From: a virus
Lineage: Duplodnaviria; Heunggongvirae; Uroviricota; Caudoviricetes
Reading direction: 5' to 3' (one strand)
Length of the DNA stretch: 9,561 bases
Virus record (IMG/VR): IMGVR_UViG_2713896904_000007
Coordinates: 1 to 9,561 of that record
The notes beneath the pieces are model-generated. The model searched no databases. It had not been told where the DNA came from and saw only the letters and a program-made list of their open reading frames with translations. Shown piece by piece: positions 5,181 through 6,494 of this stretch. A program made the translations under genes and the position numbers. How positions within the stretch are numbered: position 1 is the stretch's first letter; each line of letters starts with the position of its first letter.

Positions 5181-6494
5181 TCATTCTCCTGTTCTGCCTG
5201 TATCACTGCCCACTTCATCCAGCCCCTTAACATCCTGCCACGGCCCGTCACCAAATCTGACCTGCAAATGCTGAAACATCCCCTGAACCTGTGTGGCATC
5301 TTTGGGGTCAAGAAAGGTCAGTCCGGTGATGAGCGCACCATCTGTATCCGGGAACCAGCCATAGCTGTTTGTCTCAATAATGCTCATCGGCCCCAGACGA
5401 AAACGGATTTGTGTCTCGCCCGGGTCGCCCTTCGGCCCCTGAGGTCCGGTAGCCCCCACCGGACCTGCCGCTCCTGTTTCTCCTTTCGGTCCCTGTGGGC
5501 CTGCCGGGCCTGCTGCACCGGTATCTCCCTTTGGACCCTGTGGACCTGCATTTCCCGTCAGACCGGTCTCTCCCCGCTCTCCCATGTCACCTTTCGGCCC
5601 CTGCGGGCCTGCCGGACCAGCATCACCTGCCGGTCCCCGTTCGCCGGTTGCCCCGACAGGGCCGGTGTCACCGCGCTCTCCCTTATCACCCTTCGGCCCC
5701 TGAGGACCCGCGGGCCCCTGTTCCCCCTTTGGCCCGGGAGGTCCCACCACGGTGGGGATTCGGTTTACGGCCTCTTCCGCCGCTATCCTGCTTTGTTCCG
5801 CTGACTGTGCGCTTTCTGCTGACTCCCGGGCTTTTTCTGTTGCGGTCGTTGCATCCCTGGATGCATTACCGGCTGCACTTTCTGCCGTCTTTCTTGACAA
5901 TTCAGCTTCTGCTGCACTTTGTGATGACTCACTGGCTTTTTGAGCGGCCGCAGAAGCCGAGGACGAGGACGCATCCTCTGACTGCTTTGCTGAGGCTGCA
6001 CTTTCTGCCGCCTGCCGGGCTGACTCCGATGCCTCCCCTGCTGAAGTGTCAGCATTTGCAGCGCTCTCTTCTGCCTGACTGGCTGATATGCCGGCATTCC
6101 TCGCTGACGTCTCTGCCTCTCCGGCATTCTTCTTCGCCTCCTCAGCGTGACGCGCTGCCTCTTCCACCATCTGTTCAAAACGACGCAGTGCCTCCGGCCG
6201 GACATCATCCTCCGACATGGCACCGAGAAAATCATTCAGCGTACCCGGCTGAGAATCTTCATACACGGTGATGGTCCCGGCATGTGACGGCGGGAATCCC
6301 TCCACCAACAGAATGACGCTGTACTGACCATACTCAACGTCCATTGTGTAACGCCCGGCTTCATCCGGATTTTCTGAGGCCACTGTGTTCACCACCACCG
6401 TGGTGCTGTTACGTCTGGCTTTCAGCTGGATTGTGCAGTTCTGTACCGGTTTTCCTGTGCCGTCTTTCAGTACACCTGAAATCTTTACTGCCAT
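5181..6494 (-). CDS. stf: Side tail fiber protein, Stf-like, with collagen-like repeat block (437 aa)
   Basis: N-terminus MAVKISGVLKDGTGKPVQNCTIQLKARRNSTTVVVNTV matches the lambda Stf N-terminus as I recall it. The ORF-track start at 6500 is GTG; the ATG at 6494-6492 reproduces the Stf start. An Ala/Ser/Glu-rich low-complexity segment is followed by ~110 residues of G-X-Y repeats and a ~75-aa C-terminal domain. TGA at 5183-5181. Confidence 0.85.
   Translation of the reverse strand: MAVKISGVLKDGTGKPVQNCTIQLKARRNSTTVVVNTVASENPDEAGRYTMDVEYGQYSVILLVEGFPPSHAGTITVYEDSQPGTLNDFLGAMSEDDVRPEALRRFEQMVEEAARHAEEAKKNAGEAETSARNAGISASQAEESAANADTSAGEASESARQAAESAASAKQSEDASSSSASAAAQKASESSQSAAEAELSRKTAESAAGNASRDATTATEKARESAESAQSAEQSRIAAEEAVNRIPTVVGPPGPKGEQGPAGPQGPKGDKGERGDTGPVGATGERGPAGDAGPAGPQGPKGDMGERGETGLTGNAGPQGPKGDTGAAGPAGPQGPKGETGAAGPVGATGPQGPKGDPGETQIRFRLGPMSIIETNSYGWFPDTDGALITGLTFLDPKDATQVQGMFQHLQVRFGDGPWQDVKGLDEVGSDTGRTGE
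5415..5744 (-). repeat. Collagen-like Gly-X-Y triplet repeat region within stf (9-bp periodic coding repeats, e.g. GPQGPKGDxGExG)
   Basis: Residues 253-362 in ORF-track numbering: GPPGPKGEQGPAGPQGPKGDKGERGDTGPVGATGERGPAGDAGPAGPQGPKGDMGERGETG... Visible at nucleotide level as reiterated ggncc(n) units. Confidence 0.8.

Follow-up and report, generated by a model that had tools for sequence, protein, structure and literature searches.

The gene studied here lies at positions 5181-6494 of a 9,561-nucleotide stretch of Caudoviricetes DNA (IMG/VR record IMGVR_UViG_2713896904_000007, positions 1 to 9,561; hereafter the window), and its closest described relatives are the collagen-like prophage proteins that Ghosh et al. 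named EPclA to EPclD (2012, PLoS One 7:e37872, PMC3368898). In EPclA, the prophage collagen-like protein A of enterohaemorrhagic Escherichia coli (EHEC), the parts PfN, PCoil, Col and PfC follow one another, and most of the copies in E. coli O157 EDL933 and Sakai are 437 amino acids (aa) long, with a PCoil of 116 aa and a collagen block of 111 aa. Recombinant EPclA, built on ECs2717, is a trimer, and PfN alone is monomeric; by rotary-shadowing electron microscopy the protein is a hinged dumbbell of ~50-62 nm, the two rods of which melt independently, at 42 and 52 °C. Of the homologous fragments, PfN-PCoil is trimeric and alpha-helical with a melting temperature (Tm) of ~50 °C, Col-PfC is a trimer with a collagen circular dichroism spectrum and a Tm of 42 °C, and PfC, cloned as residues 363-426, trimerises alone (all PMC3368898).

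The second point of reference is the side tail fibre (Stf) of lambda. A 2025 cryo-electron microscopy (cryo-EM) structure of Ur-lambda (PDB 9e7m, PMC12617516) places twelve Stf N-terminal domains as a collar at the gpV/gpM junction, where they carry four trimeric side fibres, and flexible linkers join three collar domains to each of these fibres.

We conclude that the gene in the window encodes an EPclA-type side tail fibre of a lambda-like prophage, i.e. of a phage with a long non-contractile tail, and we give this reading, together with the complete account of the fibre set out below, a probability of roughly 85%. The literature and Pfam already cover the family, its domain names, the trimeric collagen/coiled-coil structure, the length polymorphism and even the small downstream gene. 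Thus, of the moderate novelty ascribed to the gene by an earlier prediction from the letters of the window alone (hereafter the original prediction), the reality of the gene stands, but its family turns out to have been described and biophysically characterised.

Architecture of the fibre

The gene is an intact open reading frame (ORF) on the minus strand; it starts with an ATG at 6494, ends with the TGA stop at 5183-5181 and codes for 437 aa. A program-made ORF list opens the frame at a GTG two codons further upstream; the ATG was taken as the start since it reproduces the start of lambda Stf, MAVKISG. Four parts can be distinguished in the protein (Table 1): a lambda-Stf-like N-terminus, an Ala/Ser/Glu-rich coiled coil, a block of Gly-X-Y triplets, and a C-terminal domain of the family PF06820.

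The N-terminal part is covered by the Pfam family PF08400 ('Prophage tail fibre N-terminal', residues 1-133, positions 6096-6494, E 1.9e-69), and its first 93 residues match the 94-residue chain 'Tail fiber protein' of the Ur-lambda structure with an E value of 6.9e-53. When residues 1-160 are compared with lambda orf-401, 121 of the 160 are identical (76%), and the similarity fades beyond this point. A weak carboxypeptidase-regulatory-like Pfam match also lies inside the N-terminal domain. The homology to a collar domain solved by cryo-EM makes it well supported that the N-terminus would anchor the side tail fibre to the virion.

Residues 135-250 form a low-complexity segment of 116 aa (Ala 30%, Ser 22%, Glu 14%) with seven large hydrophobic residues. 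The Ala autocorrelation in this segment peaks at lags 7 (0.41) and 14 (0.37), the signature of a heptad coiled coil. It is followed by 37 uninterrupted Gly-X-Y triplets and by the C-terminal domain, a 'Putative prophage tail fibre C-terminus' according to Pfam, which is absent from lambda Stf.

This architecture agrees well with what the original prediction had stated: the match of the N-terminus to lambda Stf and its anchoring role, the ~110 residues of Gly-X-Y repeats, and a non-lambda C-terminal domain at residues ~363-437 were all recovered. Only the direct succession of lambda-like N-terminus and collagen did not hold, since the coiled coil lying between these two correctly recognized parts had been omitted.

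The features of the EPclA type are thus all found in the present fibre, namely PF08400, a heptad-periodic PCoil, a single collagen block and PF06820. Architecture and lengths are identical to those of EPclA proteins such as ECs2717 and Z0982, PfC falls at the same residues 363-426, and the gene occupies the same place after lom in lambdoid prophages. At the DNA level, the region is 96-97% identical to those of characterised phages such as VT1-Sakai (H0004), and the only difference from EPclA is allelic; the records contain no protein identical to the present fibre. The trimer, with its collagen triple helix and alpha-helical coiled coil, has been shown for recombinant EPclA, so that experiments on a nearly identical protein have established the trimeric state, both rods, the hinge and the trimerisation by PfC. 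All four parts of the fibre are under purifying selection, with ratios of nonsynonymous to synonymous substitution rates (dN/dS) of 0.08-0.30, as calculated from loci retrieved by exact identity of the 89-aa protein encoded just downstream, a sample that is unsuited to the dN/dS of the 89-aa gene itself.

With lambda (Ur-lambda) Stf, the present fibre has in common a homologous collar domain and coiled-coil start as well as the position after J and lom, and its role in accelerating adsorption is presumably the same. The lambda protein, however, is 774 aa long, ends in a T4 gp37-like distal part binding to OmpC, and depends on the chaperone Tfa. None of the PF03406, Collar, Phage_fiber and Tfa (PF02413) domains, all of which lambda has, was detected by Pfam in the present fibre or in the downstream gene. 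The fibre therefore shares the anchor of lambda, not its tip.

The collagen block and its length variation

The single block of 111 residues is recognized by the Pfam family PF01391 (Collagen) with an E value of 4.4e-18. Pro occupies 18 of its 37 X positions, and the commonest triplets are GPK (six), GPQ (five) and GPA (four). Since the Gly fraction of the fibre is 0.14, the 37 in-phase glycines cannot be due to chance.

At the DNA level the block is much less repetitive than had been proposed. The original prediction described near-identical 9-bp units that are prone to slippage and recombination; in fact the 9-bp units have an average pairwise identity of 0.50, and at least 8 of 9 bases are shared in only 2.9% of the pairs. 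Tandem Repeats Finder reported only a 45-bp array of two copies (80%) and a 9-bp array of 2.2 copies, and exact direct repeats reach at most 17 bp (CCTCAGGGGCCGAAGGG, two copies 261 bp apart).

The number of triplets nevertheless varies among related prophages, as predicted and as already published: it ranges from 4 to 38 in the 120 homologues of the fibre that were listed as cluster representatives, and Tables 2-3 of Ghosh et al. (PMC3368898) report collagen lengths that differ between copies by multiples of three residues. Relative to the present protein, the deletions that are confined to the collagen block are likewise always multiples of three residues, with sizes of 15, 33, 36, 48, 51, 54, 63, 66, 69, 87, 96 or 99 residues. 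The 350-aa class (P0066-P0071), in which 87 residues are lost, carries the sequence GPP-GPK-GEQ-GPA-GPQ-GPK-GDP-GET, the exact product predicted for recombination across the 17-bp direct repeat. In addition, copies of GPQGPKG(D/E) are found at triplets 5, 16, 23, 28 and 34, and the length classes of 26, 25, 19, 14 and 32 triplets appear to equal spacings between these copies. The variants in rod length thus seem better explained by in-frame recombination between the longer, recurring GPQGPKG-coding stretches than by 9-bp slippage, which is unsupported because the DNA units are only ~50% alike.

A Gly-X-Y helix that lacks hydroxyproline and is bordered by a globular trimerisation domain is also found in Bacillus BclA and in Streptococcus Scl1/2, and BclA (1wck) matches the collagen block with an E value of 4e-08. 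The match is, however, confined to the collagen; the sequences of the flanking domains are unrelated, and these proteins belong to the surface of cells or spores, not to virions.

The C-terminal domain and a model of the fibre

Trimerisation is the sole experimentally shown property of PfC. The original prediction took the domain for the likely receptor-binding tip; in the literature, too, receptor binding is a proposal only. Structure prediction did not help much in this respect. The AlphaFold2 model, calculated for the monomer from an alignment of 24 sequences, reached a mean predicted local distance difference test score (pLDDT) of 59 for a domain that is itself an obligate trimer, and a phi24B preprint (2026) was likewise left without a confident AlphaFold model of the homologous knob. 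The poor quality of the models is attributable to the monomer-only prediction of an obligate trimer and to a family too narrow for a deep alignment: an exhaustive HMMER search with PfC against 1.8 billion representative proteins gave 44 matches, nearly all of them fragments more than 85% identical to the query, and the few distant ones were multi-repeat proteins sharing only a short 'h-Q-h-R-x-G-D-G-x-W' hairpin motif. A well-characterised fold for this domain, which the original prediction had considered as a possible objection, did not emerge. No solved relative was found by PDB sequence search, a PDB profile search started from the PfC alignment recovered the N-terminal collar domain but nothing related to PfC, and Foldseek found nothing in the PDB at E <= 0.001 with the pLDDT 59 model.

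The last third of PfC (LQVRFGDGPWQDV) does resemble the hairpin motif that recurs in Big_7 Ig-like repeats (P0274, P0276). It also resembles a ~37-aa repeat, 'THIQWRLGxGAWQNLVALS', which is interspersed with Gly-X-Y in a 938-aa fibre-like protein. A fold assignment for PfC from this likeness was rejected, the match being too short and weak.

Taken together, these data are best explained by the following picture. Three chains make up one fibre, anchored by residues 1-93. If the homology to Ur-lambda holds in this respect, twelve copies of the anchor would ring the tail where its tube and tip meet, and would hold four trimeric fibres. A short linker would then lead into a three-stranded, Ala/Ser/Glu-rich coiled coil of ~145 residues (~22 nm), followed by an NRIPTVV hinge and a collagen triple helix of 37 triplets (~32 nm), and the tip of the fibre would be a small knob of three PfC domains. 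As in other collagens, the C-terminal domain most likely nucleates the triple helix and sets its register from the C-terminal end. Because of its position at the distal tip, PfC would also be the likeliest first contact with the cell surface, probably a reversible one that speeds adsorption, while the essential receptor binder would still be the central fibre gpJ, whose gene lies just upstream, as it is in lambda. The length of the rod would change among prophages by in-frame recombination between the GPQGPKG-coding stretches. Since such fibres sit on many Shiga toxin (Stx)-converting and effector-carrying prophages, knowledge of the receptor would help explain their spread between strains.

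Several points weigh against this picture. The stoichiometry of the collar is taken over from lambda, and would apply to the present phage by homology. PfC is ~90% or more identical among the listed copies from E. coli, E. albertii and phages, with ~10 variable positions, and appears unusually conserved for a receptor-binding tip. The fibres of lambda_2B8, whose phage record (2B8) is 96.6% identical to the present region at the DNA level, do not recognise BamA according to the 2026 preprint, which cites Kuznetsov et al. 2025; the same preprint also considers a flexible collagen rod unlikely to transmit a triggering signal.

In Shigella and some E. coli homologues (P0073-P0108), the N-terminus, the coiled coil and the collagen are the same, but a Peptidase_S74 domain (PF13884) replaces PfC. 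This is the EPclD architecture, and the C-terminal module is therefore interchangeable.

A second, free-standing PfC domain

Directly after the fibre gene, an 89-aa gene encodes a second PfC domain (PfC-B), which corresponds to 933W L0122, VT1-Sakai H0003 and Sp5 ORF68. Its ATG (5179-5177) begins one base after the TGA of the fibre gene, and it is preceded by a GGAG (5186-5189) that still belongs to the last codons of stf and lies six bases upstream of the ATG; the arrangement indicates that the gene is translationally coupled to stf. The protein is 34% identical to the fibre's own PfC, and no DNA similarity was found between the two copies. For the latter reason, a recent duplication was rejected as the source of the second copy. 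PfC-B is intact at 89 aa in listed E. coli clusters totalling ~4,300 member sequences; E. albertii and Citrobacter rodentium add relatives to the list that are shorter (50-78 aa) or incomplete. Calculated from loci that had been selected for their similarity in DNA sequence, its dN/dS was 0.045 in the PfC part and 0.29 in the 27-residue N-terminal part, and the 89-aa protein is therefore maintained by selection. Its AlphaFold2 monomer model had a pLDDT of 46.

This gene has to be considered when the role of the fibre tip is weighed. PfC might be nothing but a folding and trimerisation nucleus, with surface contact made by another part, most plausibly by PfC-B docking on or capping the knob. 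We regard this as unlikely. In its favour, trimerisation is the only property that PfC has been demonstrated to possess, and PfC-B is not only strongly selected and widely intact, but also coupled to stf and carried along with the Col-PfC cassette between tail types (see below). Deletion experiments in Sp5 point in the other direction, since plaques and lysogenisation remain when ORF68 is deleted and are abolished when the fibre gene is (PMC5155283). Moreover, PfC-B is as conserved as PfC and hence no better candidate for a variable adhesin, and its placement in virions has neither structural nor proteomic support. A more elaborate form of this idea, in which PfC-B is a virion component that docks on or mixes into the PfC trimer to give a two-part tip, PfC being a small trimeric fold that serves both as folding nucleus and adhesin platform and the cassette a portable 'fibre end' swapped between tail types, is quite unlikely in our estimate.

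Mondal et al. (2016, PMC5155283) have suggested the ORF68-type gene as a reservoir for fibre variation. Accordingly, the 89-aa gene might be silent and replace the knob of the fibre by recombination or read-through, the present fibre being one of two forms. Joined proteins of the kind that this would produce do exist in the databases: in P0021 and P0028 (494 aa), rare read-through forms, the fibre runs into PfC-B so that both PfC domains are present, and in P0183 (95 aa), also rare, collagen triplets are fused directly to PfC-B. However, such joined forms have only 1-4 member sequences each and may be sequencing errors, pseudogenes or real variants. There is also no DNA similarity between the PfC copies to drive recombination, the 89-aa gene has a ribosome-binding site and a start codon of its own, and the purifying selection acting on it implies that it is translated. 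A silent reservoir is thus very unlikely, and an EPclA-type fibre with PfC at its tip remains our preferred explanation.

In two Stx2a-converting phages (L013, L014), the fibre frame appears to be broken just before and within PfC, and the 89-aa gene downstream is intact.

Gene neighbourhood, occurrence and a mosaic cassette

The order J, lom, stf in the window is that of the lambda late operon (Table 1). A terminator-like hairpin between lom and stf would lie inside the single late operon that is expected here, and is presumably read through by Q-type antitermination. The late tail operon probably ends at a second hairpin, just past the 89-aa gene. Directly after the tail genes follows an exchangeable locus of type III effector genes (441-4700, minus strand).

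Table 1. Features of the fibre gene and its surroundings in the 9,561-nucleotide window.
Feature	Positions	Strand	Basis
gpJ, C-terminal 778 residues of the central tail fibre	7223-9559	-	ORF + Pfam
Lom	6554-7153	-	ORF + Pfam
Terminator-like hairpin between lom and stf, 7 G-C pairs + T-run	6511-6532	-	Consensus scan
stf, EPclA-type side tail fibre gene	5181-6494	-	ORF + Pfam; 437/116/111 aa as in the EPclA genes of EDL933/Sakai
Collar/anchor domain, residues 1-93	6216-6494	-	PDB 9e7m_Ta, E 6.9e-53; within PF08400
PCoil, residues 135-250, ending in the NRIPTVV hinge	5745-6092	-	Composition + lag-7/14 periodicity
Collagen triple-helix block, residues 251-361	5412-5744	-	37 uninterrupted Gly-X-Y triplets; Pfam Collagen
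PfC (PF06820) knob, residues 363-426	5217-5408	-	Pfam, E 3.9e-34
11-residue tail after PfC	5184-5216	-	End of the fibre ORF
89-aa gene, free-standing second PfC domain (PfC-B)	4910-5179	-	Pfam PF06820, E 2e-35
Mosaic cassette: collagen from ~residue 255, PfC, 89-aa gene, hairpin	4868-5730	-	93% DNA identity to the 933W tail-fibre 3' end
Hairpin with 10-bp stem, AAAACCGGAG-TCCGA-CTCCGGTTTT, then TGTG, just past the 89-aa gene	4871-4895	-	By eye; unlisted in the scan
NleG, type III effector	4110-4700	-	Pfam
SopA/NleL-like HECT E3 ligase with pentapeptide repeats	1687-4059	-	Pfam
NleC, M85 protease	441-1433	-	Pfam
3' end of an EspF-repeat (TccP-like) gene (...RPLPDVAQRLIQHLAEHGIKPAHR, then stop)	2-91	+	Annotated so in E. 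coli 377323_2f

The adjoining effector genes might suggest a benefit to the bacterium instead of the phage, with the collagen-like protein acting, for instance, as a host-tissue adhesin like streptococcal Scl, and a bacterial role was raised as an open question by Ghosh et al. (2012, PMC3368898). We consider this highly improbable. The N-terminus (MAVKISGVLKDG...) is a virion collar domain in which no signal peptide or anchor is apparent by eye, the gene follows J and lom within the late tail operon, and the available evidence ties its expression to phage induction (PMC3368898). An assembly artefact, collapsed or expanded, which the original prediction had named as a danger for the repeat block, has a negligible probability: repeats are in general a risk in short-read assembly and nothing specific in support was found, whereas the reading frame is nowhere disrupted, the repeats in the DNA are short and have diverged, and the identical gene length of 1311 nt with 37 triplets recurs in nine other assemblies (L001, L003, L005-L010 and strain 377323_2f), as does the 37-triplet length in the finished EDL933 and Sakai genomes.

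The region as a whole is widespread. It was matched in 4850 of 5426 complete E. coli genomes, at up to 16 places per genome, and in 388 phage records, mostly of Stx1-, Stx2a- and Stx2c-converting phages; the nearest loci are ~98% identical over 9.2 kb. An exact 91-mer scan across one genome per species gave no match, and the window is therefore assigned only to an Escherichia lysogen of the attaching-and-effacing type.

The distal end of the fibre also occurs outside this setting. The mosaic cassette of Table 1 is shared with the EPclB fibres of short-tailed Stx2 phages (933W L0121, Sp5 ORF67, phi24B gp61), which have PF06820 in common with the present fibre; in the comparison with 933W, no similarity was found upstream of 5730, where it stops at the first collagen triplets. 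The EPclB proteins differ in having another N-terminal adaptor (no PF08400), a length of 645 aa, and two collagen blocks split by a PF03406 repeat. They differ also in their importance for the phage, EPclB being essential in Sp5 (PMC5155283) and lambda-type side fibres dispensable. The Col-PfC-PfC-B unit thus looks like a cassette that has been exchanged between long-tailed and short-tailed phages (siphovirus/podovirus).

One of the related loci (L003) has the gene order of the window, to which its DNA is 97.6% identical. It extends beyond NleC, and there, at its positions 12973-13077, in a part that does not align with the window, it codes for a 34-aa fragment with a match to PF02413, the family of the Tfa chaperone. 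This fragment may be what is left of an ancestral stf-tfa end of the lambda type that was displaced by the effector genes.

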